Shown here: one piece after another, positions 42,324 to 49,820 of the stretch | Numbering within the stretch: position 1 is the stretch's first letter | How the letters are laid out: every line of letters starts with the position of its first letter | Virus record (IMG/VR): IMGVR_UViG_3300011868_000001 | Coordinates: 1-64,000 of that record | Length of the DNA stretch: 64,000 nt | Origin: a virus | Taxonomy: Duplodnaviria; Caudoviricetes | Strand: one strand, 5' to 3' | Notes under the pieces: generated by a model | Databases searched by the model: none | Seen by the model: only the letters and a program-made list of their open reading frames with translations | What the model was told of the DNA's origin: nothing | Position numbers and translations under genes: made by a program

Positions 42324-42383
42324 GAGTCAAATCCTCGCATGAGGCGGAATATCCAGTCTCATAGGATTGGTGGCCCTGTCGAG

Positions 42384-42992
42384 TTATTCTACCAATTCCA
42401 ATACCGGACGCCAGCCGTTATTCTCATGTGACGCACTTTTCACAAGAAGGTTATATATCGTGGAAATTCCGGTTTCACCTCGATGAACACCTACAGTGGA
42501 GGTTTGGCCAGCCTCAGCCGTGATGGACGCTCTACCGCTGCCGGATACCGCCCCCACACCTAATTGCTGTTCGCTGAAACGCGCCCAGACGCCTTTCCTC
42601 ACATCAGACACCCGGTAGAGCAGGTTAGTCCATTCTGAACCAGTTATGAGTCGACAAATGAAATTCCGCCCTTGGACGTTGACCACTTTACCGGCCATTA
42701 ATCCTCTTGCATTTAGGTGGTTCCACGATACGTTATAACGCCTGGGTGTCTGGGCGATCAGGAGTTTCTTATTTTGATGCGAAAACCCTAACCAATTGCC
42801 GGTGTTGTTCTTCACACTTCCGGCGGTGAGTCCAACCAAACTGGCCAATTCACTGCCAGTAATGACCTCACCGGAGGTATATGTCCCGTAGTAACCTGTT
42901 ACTGCGTCACCGCTCAATAGATCTCGTCCAAGAAGTCCAACGGAAGGCCCTTTCATGCGCTGTCGGGCCGCCCCTAATAAAAGAATATTCAT
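42384..42992 (-). CDS. virion protein, WRPVLEL family with LLLGAARQR leader (copy 5)
   Basis: GLTAG, VSWNHLN, SEW..LLY, GWRPVLELVE; start moved downstream of ATCCTATG. Confidence 0.75.
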   Translation of the reverse strand: MNILLLGAARQRMKGPSVGLLGRDLLSGDAVTGYYGTYTSGEVITGSELASLVGLTAGSVKNNTGNWLGFSHQNKKLLIAQTPRRYNVSWNHLNARGLMAGKVVNVQGRNFICRLITGSEWTNLLYRVSDVRKGVWARFSEQQLGVGAVSGSGRASITAEAGQTSTVGVHRGETGISTIYNLLVKSASHENNGWRPVLELVE

Positions 42993-43046
42993 GTCCAAAC
43001 TATCCATAAGCCGAGTAAGAAGGCCACACATAGGATTGGTCACACG

Positions 43047-43079
43047 GCATACAGGGCGGGATTACCCCGCCCTGTATGC
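43047..43079 (-). terminator. stem-loop closing the desaturase cassette
   Basis: gcatacagggcggg-attac-cccgccctgtatgc immediately after stop at 43083. Confidence 0.85.
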
Positions 43080-43082
43080 TAG

Positions 43083-44006
43083 TTAGGCAAATGCCTGCAG
43101 GATAGTGTCGATGACTTTATCCTTATCCGCGATGGCCTGGTTGAGAGCAATGCGCACCCGATGCCGACCATTCATGGACACCGCTTGGACCCGCCCCATC
43201 TGATTTTTCTTCAACATCTGAAAGATCTCAGGGGTCTCGTAGTTCACCATGCCCATTGGCGATGAACCTACAAAACAATTACCTGTGGTCTCACTTTGAC
43301 CATGTGCAATCATCAACCGGGTAAGGTTTTCATGACTGCAGTCCAGAGAAAAACGACCGTTCTTAAGCGATCCGGAACCATACAGGGAGTAGTGCCCATA
43401 ACAGTGCTCAAACCCTTCCAGAATCTTGCTGGTGATCACGTTCGGGTTTCCCAAGGCCTCACATGCAGCCTGAGCCAGGAAGTCCTGTACGCGCATGCCA
43501 GCCGCTTTAGCACGCTTTAAGTAATTGTCACTGATAAAGACAGTGTGGGTCTCAGCCTCACCCTCGATGCCTTCAAAGGTGAATTCCCGTGGGTTGAACA
43601 AGTTGTTCGGTACAATCTTAGGCACAGTCGAAGGCGTCTCATAAACACCGAGTTCGCCGCCGGCCGCTACCCTGAAGATTTCCTGAGTCAGACGGCTGTA
43701 ACTCCAGCCATCAAGGAACTCATGCGTAAAGGACATCCAGTAGCCGTCGTCACACTCGATCACCTTAAAGCAGCTAGGGTGATCAAGGTGATCCCGTGGA
43801 TGACCGGTCAGCAGTACCAACCGCTCTGCCAGCTCTACCTTGCCATCCTTCCAGTCAGCACGCATGAACGGGATCTGCTGAGCGATCTCATTTGCGGCCT
43901 CCATCAGGACATGTGACGGACAATCGAACTGCGGGATAAACAATGCCCCGTAGGTCATCTGCTTACCATGGCCTGAGAAGGCCCGTTGCATCGGGTTCAG
44001 TCTCAT
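43083..44006 (-). CDS. stand-alone condensation-domain-like / CoA-dependent acyltransferase
   Basis: MRLNPMQRAF start (C-domain-like L.P.Q) and SFTHEFLDGWSY = HxxxDG(WS); ATG overlaps upstream TGA (ATGA). Confidence 0.7.
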   Translation of the reverse strand: MRLNPMQRAFSGHGKQMTYGALFIPQFDCPSHVLMEAANEIAQQIPFMRADWKDGKVELAERLVLLTGHPRDHLDHPSCFKVIECDDGYWMSFTHEFLDGWSYSRLTQEIFRVAAGGELGVYETPSTVPKIVPNNLFNPREFTFEGIEGEAETHTVFISDNYLKRAKAAGMRVQDFLAQAACEALGNPNVITSKILEGFEHCYGHYSLYGSGSLKNGRFSLDCSHENLTRLMIAHGQSETTGNCFVGSSPMGMVNYETPEIFQMLKKNQMGRVQAVSMNGRHRVRIALNQAIADKDKVIDTILQAFA

Positions 44007-44746
44007 TTCTTGATCATCCTCACAAACCAGGAGGTGGGGTCGACTTCCCACTTCTTGATGGCAAAGTTCCACCGGTTAGGGAACTTGTGGTGGTTGTTAT
44101 GCAATCCCTCGCCACCGAATAGCCAGCCCAGTATCTTGGAGTTCTTCGAACCCTCACCGGTCTCATAGGACACGTAACCGAACTCGTGAATCCACTTGAT
44201 GGTCACGTACTTACGGGCAAACTGCATCGCCACCACTGGCAGGGCCCACAGGTAAATCAGCGCTTCCAATGAGATCAACGACAGCAGGACAATGGCTGCG
44301 AACGAATACGCAAAGTAGTACCGGTAGGTACGCATCATGATCGGATCGGAAATGAACCGCCGTTTCATGCCTGGAGTCATCTTGACGTTGATGTTCTTAA
44401 ATGATACCATGCCGCTTTGGGCGTAGTAGTGGTGCGGATCGTCAGGCTGGTCAGACTTTAAGTGATGCTCCAGATGGATGATCGCGTAGAAGCCTGGGTG
44501 ACCAGATAGGCTGGTACAAGTCGCCCAGATCATAAACTCACGCCAAAATGGCGTGGTCTCAAATGAGCGATGAGTGAAGTAGCGATGGTTCCCGGCTGAG
44601 AGTCCTGCAATCCAGTATACCTGGAACATACAGAACGAGCCTAAGAGCCACCATCCGTTCGGCATAAAAAGCGCCCCGACAGAGATGACCATCGCAAGGA
44701 TGGTCATCGCCGCAGCCTGTCGGTGATCAGACTGGAGCAGGCGCAT
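44003..44746 (-). CDS. membrane fatty-acid desaturase (delta-9/DesC-like) B
   Basis: His boxes HRYFTH, HLEHH, GEGLHNNHH; D...DPH; KWEVDP; TM helices. Confidence 0.92.
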   Translation of the reverse strand: MRLLQSDHRQAAAMTILAMVISVGALFMPNGWWLLGSFCMFQVYWIAGLSAGNHRYFTHRSFETTPFWREFMIWATCTSLSGHPGFYAIIHLEHHLKSDQPDDPHHYYAQSGMVSFKNINVKMTPGMKRRFISDPIMMRTYRYYFAYSFAAIVLLSLISLEALIYLWALPVVAMQFARKYVTIKWIHEFGYVSYETGEGSKNSKILGWLFGGEGLHNNHHKFPNRWNFAIKKWEVDPTSWFVRMIKK

Positions 44747-45543
44747 TACGCAGCCCCAGCCTTCTTGCTACGAATCAGGCAGATGAACCAGTAACCCGGA
44801 TCGAACTCCCACCACTTCTCGCCCAGCTTAGCGCGCTTGGGACGTTTGTGATGGTTGTTGTGCCAGCCTTCGCCGCCTGCAATCAGAGAAGCGAACCACC
44901 AGTTGTTACTGAGGTCGCCATTGTCGTAGGTCTGATAACCCAGTCCCTTGACGTGCCCGGTCCAGAGGACGAAGCGAAGGGTCAGCTGGGACAAACCTGC
45001 CGGCACCATCCACAGCCAGAAGATAGCCTCGAACGCGTTCAAACCCGCCAACAGACCCAGTGCAGTCATACCCACGACGTAGGACGCCACGTAGAGCCAG
45101 TAATACTTGATCGTCAGTTGATGCAACGGATCACGTGCCACCATGGTCAGCAGGAACCGCTTGCTCACCGTGGTCTTGTGGTCGAACGGTGATTCACCGG
45201 TCAGCTGCAACTTACGATAAGGGTCTTCTGGCGTATCCGCCTTGCGGTGATGGGTCATGTGAGTGTCAGCCCAGATGCAGGGCGGGCCGACCAGCGAGAC
45301 CATAGCGCAGTACGACATCACCCATTGCCAGAACCGATTGGTTTCAAAGGCATTGTGCGAATAGTACCGGTGGACGCCGACGCTGATACCCACGACGTTC
45401 AGGACTTGCCACAGCACGAGCGCTGCGATGACCAGAACTGGATTGAACTGAAAGAACGCAACGATCGGCGCAACTGCCGCTGACGTCATGATGATCCGGT
45501 TCCCCCAGACCATGTTAGTGTTGGTTGGTTTGAACATGTTCAT
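44746..45543 (-). CDS. membrane fatty-acid desaturase (delta-9/DesC-like) A
   Basis: His boxes HRYYSH, HMTHH, GEGWHNNHH; WWEFDPG; start at ATG 45543 with AGGAG SD; TAATG overlap with next gene. Confidence 0.92.
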   Translation of the reverse strand: MNMFKPTNTNMVWGNRIIMTSAAVAPIVAFFQFNPVLVIAALVLWQVLNVVGISVGVHRYYSHNAFETNRFWQWVMSYCAMVSLVGPPCIWADTHMTHHRKADTPEDPYRKLQLTGESPFDHKTTVSKRFLLTMVARDPLHQLTIKYYWLYVASYVVGMTALGLLAGLNAFEAIFWLWMVPAGLSQLTLRFVLWTGHVKGLGYQTYDNGDLSNNWWFASLIAGGEGWHNNHHKRPKRAKLGEKWWEFDPGYWFICLIRSKKAGAA

Positions 45544-45551
45544 GTAGCTCC

Positions 45552-46181
45552 TCACCCCTGTAGAATTTGTACGCTGGCCATGGCCTCAGGTGACACTTCA
45601 GGATAGAGGGACTTGACCTCCTCCTTCGTCACTTCATACATATACACCAAGAAGGCATTTTCTTCACTGTTGTTAATGAAGGTGTAGGGGATGGGTTTGG
45701 TTAGCTTCAGATGTTTGAAGCTGTTGTGACGCGATGGGCCTATGTCAACACTACCTTCGACTATGAAGACATTGCGCTCATTGCCAGTGGTTTCAATCGT
45801 CACGGATTCCCCAGGAGCCAATGGGAAGTTTTGGGCGGCGTACAAACGCTTACCGGGTTCATTGGCCATGATACAGACAAACTTCGAGTTGTCTTCTTCA
45901 CCCTGTATTCTATATTCACCACGCACTGTTAAGCGTGCGTTAAGTGTGGTGTCACCGCGATAACGGACGAATTCAGGTAAGGTGGCCGACTTAAATCTTA
46001 CCGCCCCAGAAACAATGGCATTGGCCCTATGAACGTTGATTCCAATCTCTTGTCCATTGAACGCGAGTTGAGGAGGCAGGTCAACAGCAACAACCGCGTA
46101 TTGATCCTTATTGAGCGACAATTCATAAATGGTGAATTCGCTAAGTGGTCTGACGACCCATGCAAACGGCTTGAATTCCAT
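45552..46181 (-). CDS. cupin/pirin-like beta-barrel protein
   Basis: LAPGESVTI......VFIVEGSV.I pattern, beta-rich. Confidence 0.5.
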   Translation of the reverse strand: MEFKPFAWVVRPLSEFTIYELSLNKDQYAVVAVDLPPQLAFNGQEIGINVHRANAIVSGAVRFKSATLPEFVRYRGDTTLNARLTVRGEYRIQGEEDNSKFVCIMANEPGKRLYAAQNFPLAPGESVTIETTGNERNVFIVEGSVDIGPSRHNSFKHLKLTKPIPYTFINNSEENAFLVYMYEVTKEEVKSLYPEVSPEAMASVQILQG

Positions 46182-46183
46182 AC

Positions 46184-46417
46184 TTAGATCTCCTCGCTTT
46201 CCGCGTTGCGGTCAAAGCGCGTATCAGGGACCGGGTCCATGATCGGTTGGGGAATTGGGTTACCGCAGTTTTCTAGCAACGAATAAGCCATGCCCAAAAC
46301 AAAAGCTTGTTTCACGCTCAGACCACCTAAATCTAACGGTCTGAATTCCATAGTAACGGGCATGTTACCGTTCTCTACGACTGCGGAGCTTGACCCTATT
46401 GAAATGATTTTAATCAT
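46184..46417 (-). CDS. small hypothetical protein (77 aa)
   Basis: Fills gap exactly between adhesin-like and cupin-like genes. Confidence 0.6.
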   Translation of the reverse strand: MIKIISIGSSSAVVENGNMPVTMEFRPLDLGGLSVKQAFVLGMAYSLLENCGNPIPQPIMDPVPDTRFDRNAESEEI

Positions 46418-46431
46418 ACCGATTACTCATG

Positions 46432-47019
46432 TCAGTTGAAGACGACAGTAGTGGTCTTATTGATAATGGCGTTATATATCTGATTGTATTGTTGAACAGT
46501 GATACTGATACCATAGATCTTGAACGCCGCCGTCGATGAGGTATAAAACGTAGAAGTGCCTGTCGGTGTGGAGGCTGATCCTTTGTAGGAAAGCGACATA
46601 TCTACACTGAATATACCTGCTATAGTCAGACCACCTATGGTCACACTGCGTGGGGTCATATGTGACCCGGATGCAGATGACGTGTCTATCATCAACATGA
46701 GGTGACAGATAGGACTGGTACCACCAGTGTTTTCAATGTAACATTGTCTTATCGGTATTCCGAATACAGACGTAGGGGAAATTGAACCGAACGCACCTCT
46801 CGAAAATCCACACATCGTACCGCTTGCCACGGCAGATAGGTTAAACGACCCTAGACCGATGGCAGCAGACTTGCCCCGCAGAGCAGACATTGCGATAGCG
46901 CCTGAAGCCAGGCCTGCCAGAGAACGGACGTTGCTCTGACCAAGACTGATAGCGCCTGAAAGACCTAGTTCTGACCGGATATCGGCCATCGAGATAGGAC
47001 CAGTTGAAGGTAGTGGCAT
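46432..47019 (-). CDS. tail fibre tip/adhesin-like protein
   Basis: MPLPSTGPISM.DI..ELG....ISL....VR.LAG..SGAI.MS.LRGKS leader typical of genes following chaperone-bearing fibres; S/G/T-rich C-terminus. Confidence 0.7.
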   Translation of the reverse strand: MPLPSTGPISMADIRSELGLSGAISLGQSNVRSLAGLASGAIAMSALRGKSAAIGLGSFNLSAVASGTMCGFSRGAFGSISPTSVFGIPIRQCYIENTGGTSPICHLMLMIDTSSASGSHMTPRSVTIGGLTIAGIFSVDMSLSYKGSASTPTGTSTFYTSSTAAFKIYGISITVQQYNQIYNAIINKTTTVVFN

Positions 47020-47048: not shown

Positions 47049-47075
47049 ATAGAGGAGGGGCGACCCCTCCTCTAT
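47049..47075. terminator. stem-loop upstream of the adhesin/desaturase cassette
   Basis: atagaggagggg-cga-cccctcctctat. Confidence 0.8.
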
Positions 47076-47086
47076 GTCGTCAGTCC

Positions 47087-47548
47087 TTAGACGGGTTCAA
47101 CCGGTTCATCACCGCCAACTGGCGGGTCTTCCGGAGCAGATTCATCTACCGGCTCTTCATCTTCGGCAGGCAGTGCCTCTTGTTCTTCCTGCTCGAGCAG
47201 CTCTTGTAGACGACGAGCTTCCTCATCACGCTTGTCAGCGAAGTGCACGTACGCCGAGGTCAGCAGGGCTGCCAGCTGCGCAACACTTGCCGTCTGACCA
47301 GAAGACGTACCGTCCGGGTTGAGCACGGCGTACTCTTCGAACAGGTTGGTGTTGTCAATGGCCATCATCAATTCACCTGCTGGTCGACGGAAGATACTAC
47401 CATCGACTTCGACGATCTGTTCTTCGGCGAAGAGCACGCGTGGAATCTGACCGTAGTCATTATAGATGATGATCGATGCTGCCCGTTTCCAGGTATCGCC
47501 GATTGCTTCTTGCTTGTTGTACTTGAAATCCATCGAAGGGATTGTCAT
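47087..47548 (-). CDS. fibre-associated hypothetical protein with acidic tail
   Basis: Directly after long fibre gene. Confidence 0.65.
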   Translation of the reverse strand: MTIPSMDFKYNKQEAIGDTWKRAASIIIYNDYGQIPRVLFAEEQIVEVDGSIFRRPAGELMMAIDNTNLFEEYAVLNPDGTSSGQTASVAQLAALLTSAYVHFADKRDEEARRLQELLEQEEQEALPAEDEEPVDESAPEDPPVGGDEPVEPV

Positions 47549-47573: not shown

Positions 47574-49820
47574 TTATTTGGCAACCAGTTCTTCAAACAG
47601 AGCCTGGAGTTCATCGATACGCTGAGTCAAGGTATCGACCTGGGCTTCCAGCGACACAATGCGCTCGCCTTGCGCGATCACAATCTCGTCAAGTTCTTTG
47701 ACGCCTTCTGCCAGCAGTGCAGTGACGTTGCCGTAGCAGATACCCATCTTGCCAGAGCCCGGTTCACCGACCACCACTTCCGGGAGGATCTTGTACATCT
47801 CCTGGGCAATGAACCCAGCCTGAACCTGACCGGTGTCCTTACGGGTGAAAGTCACACCCCGCGTGCGACGGATACGGCTCAGTGCATCAGAGATGAGCTT
47901 GATGTCGGTTTTCAGGCTGAGGTCTGAGTAGGCTGTGATGTTACCGCCTGCATAGATATCGAGCACGACACCCAGACCACCCGATACGCGCAGGGCACCG
48001 GTAGTCGCGCTGGTAGCGTTACTGGTGTTGCTGAACGTAGTCACGCCAGTGACAGTGCCACCGGTGGTGTTGAACTTGGCATCCAACGACGTCTGCAGGT
48101 TGGTGATGGTCGAGATCGCCTGTGCACCGGTGTGGTTAGCACGGTTGAGCAGGGTGGCATCAGTGGAGTTCGCTGTCGCACCTGCCGCAATACCATCGAG
48201 TTTGGATTTGTCAGCCGCGACCATCAGACCTGCCAAGGCAGTAGTGGCTGCGGTCAGCGCAGCGTTACCACCTGTGGAACTCGAAACCGTACCGCCAGTG
48301 GAGGTAGCCGACCAGGACAGGTTCGTGGCAACGTTGACTTGCGCCCCTGCTTGAATTCCATCCAACTTGGACTTATCTGCCGAGGTCAGCAGGCCGGCTG
48401 CAGCGGTAGTAGCAGCCGGTAGCGTAGCGTTGTTACCGGTGGAGCTGGTTACAGTACCCGAGCTGGCTGCTGTGGTGTAGCCAAGATTAGTCCCGCCGAT
48501 GTTGCTCAGTCCGTCGAGTTTGGTTTTATCGGCGGCGGTCATGAGACCCGCTGCCGCGGTAGTGGCTGCTGGCAGGGTCGCGTTGTTGCCAGTCGAGCTA
48601 GTCACCGTACCATTGCTGGCAGCACTGGTATAGCCCAGGTTGGTGGCCACGTTGACCTGTGCCCCAGCCTGGATACCGTCGAGTTTGGTCTTGTCGGCAG
48701 AACCCGCCCACCATGCAGCAATCGCCTGACGGACGCGCTGTGCAGTCCAGGCACGACGAGTGGTGGCTGTGCCGGCTTCAGCTTCAGCTTGTGTGACCGT
48801 TACAGCATTCCATTCACGAGCATCGCTAAGACGTGCATCGGTCGAGTCGACCTTAGCGTCTAGTTCAGTCTGCAAGCCGCTGACAGTGGCGATCGCTTGA
48901 GTGCCCGTGTGTGTGGCACGGTCACGCAACTGAGCATCGGTCGAGTTGGCGGTGGCGCCAGCAGCAATGCCATCGAGTTTGGTTTTCTCAGCACTGGCGA
49001 TCCACCAGGCAACGATAGCTTGACGAACACGCTGAGCAGTAAAGGCACGCCGAGTCGTGGCCGTACCGGCTTCTGCTTCAGCCTGCGTGATGGTGCTGGC
49101 AGTCCACTCGCGGCTGTTGGTCAGACGGGCATCATCATCATTGACTTTGGTGCCCAGCTGAGTTGCAACAGTGGTGGCGAAGTTTGGATCATTACCCAGC
49201 GCCGCGGCCAGCTCGTTGAGGGTGTTCAATGCCTCTGGAGAGGAGTCAACCAGCGCCGCAATCGCAGCATTACAGAAGGCCTTGTATTCGCTCTCGATGG
49301 TTGCCAGTTGTTTACCGTCAAGGGTATCGGCATCCAGACCCGATCCTGCGCCGTCAACCGTGAGCAACTTAGCCAGTACATCAGCTGCCGTGTAGAGCGC
49401 AGCATTGAGTTTGCTGTTAAGGGCGGTATCCAGACCGGTGACCTTGCTGGTAGGTAGGGCCGGAATCCGATCGACATGGAAGGCACCGGTGGTGACTTTG
49501 GCAGCATCTAGCACCGGAATGTCCGCTGCAAGCAGCAGTTCACCTTTGGTGACGCGGCCTTTAGCGTCGACCGTCACTTTAGGGTAGACACCAGGGGCCA
49601 CTGCCGTGTTGGCCAGTGTCAGGGCAATCGAGACATTGGCATCGCCCGATACCGATTGGGTGCCGGTGGCATCGCCGGTGACGATCAGGTTAAAGGGATT
49701 GGTCAGTTTATAGGCGCTGACCGCTGGGGCTGTCTTGTCGAGCTTACTGTCGATCTGATCCGAGATCGACGACAGCAGCCCTGAAAGCTTAAGCTTGAGT
49801 GCTTGAATTTGAGGCGACAT
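47574..49820 (-). CDS. long tail fibre with C-terminal peptidase S74-type intramolecular chaperone
   Basis: VTVDAKGRVT, GSGLDAD.LDG, SPEALNTLNELAAALGNDPNF, internal repeats, YSD..LK..I...GV.F...GFIAQE....LPEVV then coiled coil. Confidence 0.9.
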   Translation of the reverse strand: MSPQIQALKLKLSGLLSSISDQIDSKLDKTAPAVSAYKLTNPFNLIVTGDATGTQSVSGDANVSIALTLANTAVAPGVYPKVTVDAKGRVTKGELLLAADIPVLDAAKVTTGAFHVDRIPALPTSKVTGLDTALNSKLNAALYTAADVLAKLLTVDGAGSGLDADTLDGKQLATIESEYKAFCNAAIAALVDSSPEALNTLNELAAALGNDPNFATTVATQLGTKVNDDDARLTNSREWTASTITQAEAEAGTATTRRAFTAQRVRQAIVAWWIASAEKTKLDGIAAGATANSTDAQLRDRATHTGTQAIATVSGLQTELDAKVDSTDARLSDAREWNAVTVTQAEAEAGTATTRRAWTAQRVRQAIAAWWAGSADKTKLDGIQAGAQVNVATNLGYTSAASNGTVTSSTGNNATLPAATTAAAGLMTAADKTKLDGLSNIGGTNLGYTTAASSGTVTSSTGNNATLPAATTAAAGLLTSADKSKLDGIQAGAQVNVATNLSWSATSTGGTVSSSTGGNAALTAATTALAGLMVAADKSKLDGIAAGATANSTDATLLNRANHTGAQAISTITNLQTSLDAKFNTTGGTVTGVTTFSNTSNATSATTGALRVSGGLGVVLDIYAGGNITAYSDLSLKTDIKLISDALSRIRRTRGVTFTRKDTGQVQAGFIAQEMYKILPEVVVGEPGSGKMGICYGNVTALLAEGVKELDEIVIAQGERIVSLEAQVDTLTQRIDELQALFEELVAK

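Follow-up and report, generated by a model that had tools for sequence, protein, structure and literature searches.

A fibre-tip cassette of two desaturases and a condensation-fold enzyme in a phiKZ-like phage, a candidate module for acyl tailoring in adsorption

I analysed a window of 64,000 nucleotides from a giant phiKZ-like phage (254-kb, genome 96%-complete), and found that six genes next to a tail fibre gene probably encode a functional pathway that tailors acyl chains and is tied to host recognition or adsorption. The best explanation overall, offered tentatively, is that they form a long-tail-fibre accessory module, which tailors an acyl chain for adsorption; that the product is carried by the virion tip is put forward with the same reserve. 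What was observed is the order of the genes, their folds, the complete catalytic His sets, the purifying selection and the linkage to the fibre tip; acylation of the tip is inferred from these.

The six genes are all on the minus strand and tightly spaced, with gaps of 14, 2 and 8 nt, and TAATG and ATGA overlaps couple desaturase A, desaturase B and the HxxxDG enzyme (Table 1), as the original prediction, made from the sequence alone, had described. Desaturase A probably starts at an ATG preceded by GAGGAG, giving 265 residues; the GTG at 45555 from the open reading frame list is less likely. All six genes are under purifying selection, and comparison with close relatives gave dN/dS values of 0.04–0.08 for desaturase A, 0.01–0.035 for desaturase B and 0.04–0.08 for the transferase. 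The cassette had also been described as enclosed by two strong hairpins. The stems are real (folding z of -4.1 and -5.5), but they are not cassette-specific borders, because they belong to a palindrome family with 32 perfect stems of at least 12 bp genome-wide, of which about 19 have the same CATA..TATG foot. They were also rejected as intrinsic terminators, since they possess no U-tract and neither is listed by the terminator scan. The six genes stand as a group, but the functional unit reaches upstream to the S74 fibre gene, including the 153-aa gene, whose product is probably a fibre assembly factor. The S74 fibre gene is found upstream of the tip gene in related loci too.

Table 1. Features of the fibre-tip cassette and its surroundings (positions in the window).
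Feature	Position	Strand	Evidence or remark
Tail fibre, 748 aa, C-terminal Peptidase_S74 chaperone	47574..49820	-	PF13884 E 5e-13 and PHROG tail-fibre matches
153-aa gene, between fibre and tip genes	47087..47548	-	kept in close relatives L001, L015, L016
Hairpin, 12-bp perfect stem	47049..47075	.	without U-tail; genome-wide palindrome family
Fibre-tip (adhesin-like) gene, 195 aa	46432..47019	-	gp38-like anchor and beta-sandwich model
77-aa gene	46184..46417	-	tracks tip allele
Cupin-like gene, 209 aa	45552..46181	-	weak Pirin_C/KduI matches, invariant columns
Naturally swapped block: tip domain past anchor, 77-aa gene, first ~165 cupin codons	45687..46927	-	contig comparison
Desaturase A, 265 aa, SCD/Delta9 fold	44746..45543	-	PF00487, intact His boxes
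Desaturase B, 247 aa	44003..44746	-	PF00487, intact His boxes
Condensation/CoA-acyltransferase-fold enzyme, 307 aa	43083..44006	-	predicted structure, Foldseek, HxxxDG
Hairpin, 13-bp perfect stem	43047..43079	.	without U-tail; genome-wide palindrome family

For the last gene product, lack of a CAT-like or condensation fold had been named as grounds for refutation. The predicted structure (pLDDT 93.9, pTM 0.91) does possess this fold, with a Foldseek E of 1e-13 and a best Z of 22.8 (rmsd 3.1 Å over 303 residues), and the Atlas agrees. The expected THEFLDGWS and L.P.Q start are both present, the latter reading LNPMQ; the HxxxDG motif is also there, its exact form being xHxxxDG with one His. Residues H95, D99 and G100 are invariant in 16 transferase sequences, and G204-H205 forms a second motif. 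No Pfam match was obtained in 12 members, while weak profile matches fall on the HxxxDG of NRPS domains. An NRPS condensation domain proper (PF00668) was rejected, with no Pfam match, a length of 307 and not ~430 residues, no HHxxxDG, and no carrier-protein partner in the genome. The fold is common to acyltransferases, dehydratases and isomerases, and the best matches include non-transferases, namely the AzeD dehydratase and heterocyclisation domains. The modelled structure points to a minimal condensation/CoA-acyltransferase-fold enzyme, with acyl-transfer activity predicted. To my knowledge, no enzyme of the condensation fold is known to use a folded protein as acyl acceptor.

Both desaturases match PF00487 (70.8 bits, E 2e-19 for A and 54.2 bits, E 2e-14 for B, with a cut-off of 29.7). 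The three His boxes reported for each are invariant, and the His of the fourth motif is also kept. Hydropathy peaks at residues 21–48 and 150–180 (A) and 9–31 and 144–176 (B) mark hydrophobic membrane segments, one ahead of box 1 and another between the second and third boxes. Both have the SCD fold, and their nearest solved relatives are SCD1. In a tree from a quick search, with SH-aLRT support only and 30 bacterial rows, B is the sister clade of A (31% identical), and together they form their own phage clade.

An Asn that holds a metal-bound water in such enzymes is missing from both desaturases. In the NxxxH motif it is replaced by Leu in A and Ile in B, with the His kept in both, so that neither carries the NxxxH of SCD/DesC Delta9 enzymes (N261-H265 in mouse SCD1; PMC5566439). 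This Asn is present in 0/33 A and B sequences versus 80/80 bacterial homologues, counted over sequences that are not phylogenetically independent, and a third desaturase paralogue of other cassettes retains it. Because the active-site motif is non-canonical, plain desaturation is not assured by these sequences, and non-standard chemistry is possible in both enzymes.

Tandem desaturase arrays were found at 36 of 79 viral but 1 of 80 bacterial loci, which together with the Asn loss makes for a poor fit to a simple fluidity gene. I consider it improbable that A and B are ordinary Delta9 auxiliary genes for membrane fluidity, located in a tail region prone to recombination, even though SCD1 structures are their closest solved relatives and other phages provide precedents. 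Delta9 activity has been demonstrated for the vFADs of cyanophages (Roitman et al., PMC5776448), and Arctic brine phages carry 12 FAD genes in four viral populations, with predicted Pseudomonas hosts for two multi-FAD jumbo phages of 222–230 kb (Zhong et al., PMC7300359, PMC10405475); both sets were interpreted there as membrane-fluidity genes. Here, two or three paralogues are fixed and the NxxxH Asn is lost, there is translational coupling to the transferase, and the place behind the tip is constant in unrelated phages.

No ACP or acyl ligase had been noticed in the cassette, and this extends to the whole genome: PF00550, PF00501 and PF00111 (ACP, acyl ligase and 2Fe-2S ferredoxin) have no match in the 96%-complete sequence, while controls matched. 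A polyyne or polyene pathway of the cay or jam type was rejected, as its own ACP, acyl-AMP ligase and redox partner are absent from the genome. The lack of ligase, ACP and ferredoxin also weighs against an acyl-amide or ester product (polyene, alkyne or hydroxy-acyl), whether diffusible or retained in the cell, acting as a signal, antimicrobial or host-defence inhibitor. VibH, SgcC5 and the enacyloxin offloading enzyme do make small-molecule amides or esters and are fold matches, and larger phage clusters with ACP, AcpS and Rieske exist (L119), reaching up to 11 desaturases; but such a product would leave the fixed place among tip genes and the co-loss with the fibre unexplained, and I consider it quite unlikely.

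The transferase family was found on phage-like contigs only, and adjoins a desaturase in 15/15 loci. It lies behind a fibre-tip gene in all 13 loci with upstream sequence, unrelated phage types included. The original prediction, which would have fallen had the enzymes never co-occurred with the adhesin elsewhere, is thus not refuted. Pattern searches found no transferase in 185,579 prokaryote genomes, and no homologue in the JGI metagenome and GTDB collections, at a sensitivity limited to the motif used; desaturase B, the transferase and the cupin have no match among cultured phages. The linkage is seen in ~108-kb DnaB/Hfq phages (L012, L086, L093), and in the small phages L155 and L179, where the tip is a true GP38 and the desaturases belong to other lineages; in L155 the same leader is fused to the true GP38 domain. 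In L085 and L004 the enzyme genes are still interleaved with tip genes after rearrangement, and in the nearest cultured relative, DT01, fibre, tip and enzymes are all missing together at the equivalent site. Gene-to-gene distance correlations are confounded by kinship.

The transferase is absent from otherwise complete cassettes at L085, L087, L155 and L179 (for the first two, within the fetched loci). The core is therefore tip, small gene, cupin and desaturases, and attachment at these four loci would need another route. The proposed scheme of desaturation followed by transfer is thus not general, and the original interpretation is partly supported. Desaturases were found in only 1/64 other tip-anchor loci, so that tips generally work without them. 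Among the tail and ejection-type genes of six podophage-like loci, a desaturase gene is overlapped by one or two that encode protein-lysine acyltransferases of the HlyC family, which offers a parallel for protein acylation.

The adhesin label given to the first gene is supported by its gp38-like N-terminus. Residues 1–53 form a helical anchor, and residues 56–195 a variable beta-sandwich (model pLDDT 79.5). Residues 2–53 superpose on residues 2–46 of S16 gp38 (6F45_D) with an rmsd of 2.1 Å over 45 residues (Z 3.6), and structure matches in BFVD include Gp38-domain proteins, with prob 0.99–1.0 but E 0.2–0.5; the shortness of the domain keeps these scores weak. The tip thus has two marks of a gp38-type adhesin, a position behind an S74 fibre and a helical N-terminal anchor. 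No Pfam match to the polyglycine GP38 receptor-binding domain (PF05268) was found in the tip, where the model is a beta-sandwich, and this beta-domain matched nothing in the PDB above Z 4.7. An acceptor residue confined to cassette tips was sought, and none found. A C-terminal helix and NKTT-like strand are frequent in cassette tips, and are missing from L002, L086 and L093.

Tip identity to close kin is 46–53%, and tips of ~50% identity are paired with enzymes of 96–98% identity in close relatives. A contig of sequencing run X2 has 1247 different bases in place of the swapped block, over which identity also dips relative to L001, L015 and L016. The tip gene is therefore exchanged as one block together with the 77-aa gene and most of the cupin gene, while the enzyme genes remain. 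The 77-aa protein is beta-beta-beta-alpha by sequence, with an AFxxGxA motif; it was ruled out as an ACP (no DSL motif, no PF00550 match), and alignment to the small gene that commonly follows other tips gave an hhalign prob of only 2.4. The cupin-like protein is homologous to the L155 cupin (hhalign prob 79.8, E 1.5e-5). Pirin_C and KduI matches, in 6 and 4 of 13 members, are weak and below cut-off, and the family alignment shows invariant Arg52, Arg75, Arg83 and Cys103 but no conserved His.

This exchange bears on the main rival explanation, host-envelope masking, in which the enzymes would alter an outer-envelope lipid or receptor (lipid A, lipoglycan or lipoprotein) late in infection, causing superinfection exclusion or keeping progeny off lysed-cell debris. 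Phage T5 possesses a receptor-binding/receptor-blocking gene pair, which the tip-gene linkage would parallel, and the small partner genes swap along with the tip, as would be expected of a blocker. The usual substrates of desaturases, which are membrane enzymes, are lipids, and condensation-fold relatives such as PapA5 acylate lipids. Cyanophage tailoring clusters are proposed to decorate surfaces or to synthesise a metabolite (Iyer et al. 2021, PMC7824862). However, the enzyme genes themselves stay in place when the tip allele is swapped, an acyl-chain double bond would hide a receptor poorly, and the HlyC parallel suggests protein acceptors. I therefore regard masking as unlikely, if less so than the other rivals.

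In the preferred reading, that of a fibre accessory module, the cassette would be expressed late, with the fibre. Desaturases A and B would lie in the inner membrane of the host, whose redox partners would supply electrons and whose metabolism would supply the acyl chain (as acyl-ACP, acyl-CoA or already protein-borne); the two enzymes would oxidise this chain at two positions, possibly by non-standard chemistry. The cupin and 77-aa protein may be a tip-specific adaptor or acyl shuttle, and the condensation-fold enzyme, where present, would transfer the acyl group to an N or O acceptor via His95. The gp38-like tip, or else a virion protein next to it, would carry the product, which would alter the cells or surfaces bound. 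More speculatively, and somewhat less probably than the module itself, the cassette could be one variant, beside the pairs of HlyC and desaturase and the desaturase arrays with ACP, of a single widespread virion-lipidation strategy of tailed phages, in which a tailored (unsaturated, acetylenic or hydroxylated) acyl group is placed on the receptor-binding tip; host range would then be set by this lipid in addition to the protein sequence. Literature searches found nothing on a phage gp38-type adhesin with a desaturase or on phage HlyC with virion acylation, and no description for any phage of a tailored fatty chain on a host-recognition tip.

Phage desaturases are catalogued as membrane-fluidity helpers. 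Here they are fixed, diverged paralogues tied to a host-recognition tip, and many other viral desaturases are likewise in arrays beside structural genes, suggesting that in many cases the fluidity label may be mistaken. Acylation of the tip, if it occurs, would make host range depend on a chemical modification that is missed by sequence-based prediction and recombinant fibre work. Even otherwise, the cassette comprises a minimal enzyme of condensation fold (307 aa) and di-iron enzymes without the Asn, possibly with new chemistry.

Two known systems involve dedicated protein modification: in HlyC-HlyA toxin acylation a dedicated enzyme acylates a protein from acyl-ACP, and in mycobacteriophage virion glycosylation phage enzymes decorate virion proteins. 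In contrast to the former, the cassette has no HlyC and its transferase is of another fold, and any virion acylation by it is predicted. T-even gp38 (S16, PDB 6F45) shares with the cassette tip its gene place after an S74 fibre and its N-terminal helical anchor; gp38 has a polyglycine domain and no known enzyme cassette, whereas the C-terminal domain of the cassette tip is a beta-sandwich without clear PDB match. Cyanophage vFADs and brine-phage FADs are, like A and B, phage-borne desaturases of SCD/DesC fold, but A and B form their own phage clade without the NxxxH Asn, and term searches in PMC5776448, PMC7300359 and PMC10405475 gave no tie of FADs to a tail-fibre tip, cupin or acyltransferase. 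The cyanophage tailoring clusters also combine oxidative and transfer enzymes with cupins; these are carbamoyltransferases, a halogenase and 2OG oxygenases, with no desaturase or condensation enzyme and, in the passages of PMC7824862 consulted, no tie to a gp38-like tip. Compared to stand-alone condensation domains and CoA-dependent acyltransferases, the phage transferase is ~110 residues shorter (6–13% identity), and unlike them it has no Pfam match, a single His, neither a carrier protein nor an adenylation enzyme in its vicinity, and was found on phage-like contigs only. Along its full 307 residues it nonetheless has the two-lobed fold (Z up to 22.8) of VibH, SgcC5, PapA5, TRI3, AzeD and BAHD, with which it also shares HxxxDG, and in my own reading its start and its GHYS motif are similar to core motifs C1 and C5.

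The virus record, whose first 64 kb make up the window, spans 253,747 bp (96% complete), and the genes around the cassette match those of phiKZ-like jumbo phages. The cultured phage that most resembles it is Pseudomonas phage pPa_SNUABM_DT01 (ligase 65%, structural gene 49.5%), and on this resemblance a host of Pseudomonas type is likely. Re-inspection of the sequence bore out the six genes originally described, with their gaps, overlaps and motifs. The two hairpins said to enclose them are real, fold far better than shuffles and bracket the genes, but the same palindrome family occurs genome-wide, and the cassette is not singled out by it; no U-tail was found at either hairpin. The family possibly represents phage-specific terminators or processing sites. 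Directly past the cassette lies an extra paralogue of a phiKZ-like virion structural family, absent or replaced in three close relatives (L001, L015 and L016) and in two sequencing runs, X1 and X2 (joint 42374-43029).

The first gene very likely encodes a fibre-tip protein, as the original prediction held, since the small helical domain made up of its residues 1-53 can be superposed on the phage S16 gp38 anchor (rmsd 2.1 Å, Z 3.6), the identical leader type is joined to a true GP38 domain in the small phage L155 (E 1e-13), and an S74 fibre lies near the leader gene in 41 of 66 leader loci. The N-terminal domain also superposes on BFVD Gp38-domain proteins. Where S16 gp38 has a polyglycine domain, the cassette tip has a beta-sandwich. 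In Pseudomonas phage Astolliot, one S74 fibre is followed by three tandem tip-leader genes with differing C-terminal domains, and without enzymes.

The last gene product, the transferase, has no Pfam match. Its confident model (pLDDT 93.9) resembles condensation domains and CoA-dependent acyltransferases along its entire length (Foldseek E 1e-13; Z 22.8, rmsd 3.1 Å, 303 residues), which upholds the fold proposed from its motifs, and an Atlas result agrees. It is shorter than these enzymes by about 110 residues, and H95, D99 and G100 are invariant. Because dehydratases and isomerases share this fold class, acyl transfer is its likely, predicted activity. The family is a small one, with 8 representatives among 1.84 billion, and a pattern search of GTDB returned no homologue.

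That these enzymes would co-occur with the adhesin elsewhere was confirmed: the transferase lies behind a tip gene in 13/13 loci with upstream sequence, and adjoins a desaturase in 15/15. These loci take in ~108-kb phages with DnaB, PhoH and Hfq, unlike jumbo phages. Two or three tip genes are interleaved with enzyme genes in two loci (L085, L004), and at the syntenic site in DT01 fibre, tip and enzymes are jointly absent. The converse linkage does not hold, desaturases being present at only 1 of 64 other tip loci. No transferase was found in the DNA fetched for L085, L087, L155 and L179; the core therefore consists of two desaturases with the tip, small gene and cupin, to which a third desaturase and the transferase come as additions. 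In the tree, the desaturases of L155 and L179 are of lineages other than A and B. A trio in which a small YxYxI-type protein and a His-bearing cupin accompany the tip gene is widespread in freshwater phages, directly after the leader gene.

Loci and positions of the features compared
Feature	Locus	Position
Palindromes with CATA..TATG foot and GC-rich stem, ~19 genome-wide	window	9728, 16321, 19436, 22753, 35949, 37978, 43047, 47049, 51991
Extra virion structural paralogue	window	42384-43043
HlyC-family (PF02794, E down to 5e-27) and desaturase overlaps, between tail and ejection-type genes	L101	7935-9091
	L103	7517-9151
	L096	8019-9175
	L138	7567-8720
	L146	3147-4294
	L108	5540-6687
Arrays of 5-11 His-box desaturases on phage contigs	L119	1680-16300
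	L143, L162, L111	
ACP	L119	14405-14647
AcpS	L119	6180-6512
Small phages: fibre, GP38 tip, 90-aa gene, homologous cupin, two desaturases, no transferase	L155	1268-6218
	L179	3689-8642
	L125	
Other enzyme sets next to tip-leader genes: putative 2OG oxygenases (by motif), radical SAM, desaturases	L064	5371-12466
	L059	2650-7354
	L135	43-13685
Tip, YxYxI-type protein, cupin trio	L021, L025, L054, L057, L067	
Tandem tip-leader genes, Astolliot	L079	7875-9552

Among four close relatives, purifying selection on the enzymes is strong (dN/dS 0.01-0.08), against 0.24-0.32 for the tip gene. Identity to L015 is 96-98% for the enzymes, and falls to 50% for the tip, 56% for the 77-aa gene and 74% for the cupin; in an independent-run contig, exactly 45687-46927 is exchanged for 1247 other bases. 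Thus the tip variable domain moves as a single block with the 77-aa gene and the greater part of the cupin, which suggests that the 77-aa protein and cupin are tip-specific and the enzymes generic, although hitch-hiking between recombination anchors could also produce this pattern.

Desaturases A and B, which share 31% identity, form sister clades (SH-aLRT 98) within a large viral radiation, separate from the bacterial desaturases sampled (30 rows). Both retain every His ligand, and the NxxxH Asn is substituted in every A and B sequence. This Asn holds a metal-bound water, so the chemistry of A and B may differ from Delta9 desaturation. It is retained by 80/80 bacterial homologues and by 45/100 of the other viral ones, and the third paralogue of longer cassettes has it too. 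In SCD1, the closest solved relative of A and B, it is N261 (PMC5566439). The 96% complete genome yielded neither an ACP nor an acyl ligase nor a 2Fe-2S ferredoxin, so acyl donors and electrons would be host-supplied.

Tandem desaturases occur in 36/79 viral but 1/80 bacterial loci; one array comprises 11 with an ACP and AcpS (L119), and another is accompanied by a Rieske protein (L162). In six podophage-like loci, amid tail and ejection-type genes, a desaturase gene overlaps with one or two genes for protein-lysine acyltransferases of the HlyC family. The arrangement suggests that acylation of a virion protein is coupled to the desaturase. Among indirect arguments that acylation of virion proteins is fed by phage desaturases, these pairs are the strongest. 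The cassette probably encodes a pathway linked in some form to host recognition. Beyond fold and linkage I infer each step: the cassette would be expressed late, together with the fibre, A and B would oxidise a host acyl chain, the cupin and small protein would hand it over, and it would be transferred to the tip or a neighbouring virion protein. This whole scheme is favoured tentatively, at somewhat short of an even chance.

Cyanophage tailoring clusters have been interpreted as decorating surfaces or synthesising a metabolite (PMC7824862). For the present cassette, masking of the host envelope is rather unlikely, and a diffusible product distinctly improbable. Cyanophage vFADs are demonstrated Delta9 enzymes (PMC5776448), and the FADs of Arctic brine multi-FAD phages, which include two jumbo phages predicted to infect Pseudomonas, were interpreted as fluidity genes (PMC7300359, PMC10405475); that A and B are plain membrane-fluidity genes is the least probable reading. 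No paper tying a fibre tip to desaturases or to a condensation enzyme was found in a literature search covering a minority of subscription journals. The cassette is real and conserved, is specific to phages, and as a system appears not to have been described. It is assembled from known folds and its product is a predicted one; if the tip proves to be acylated, it would be categorically new.
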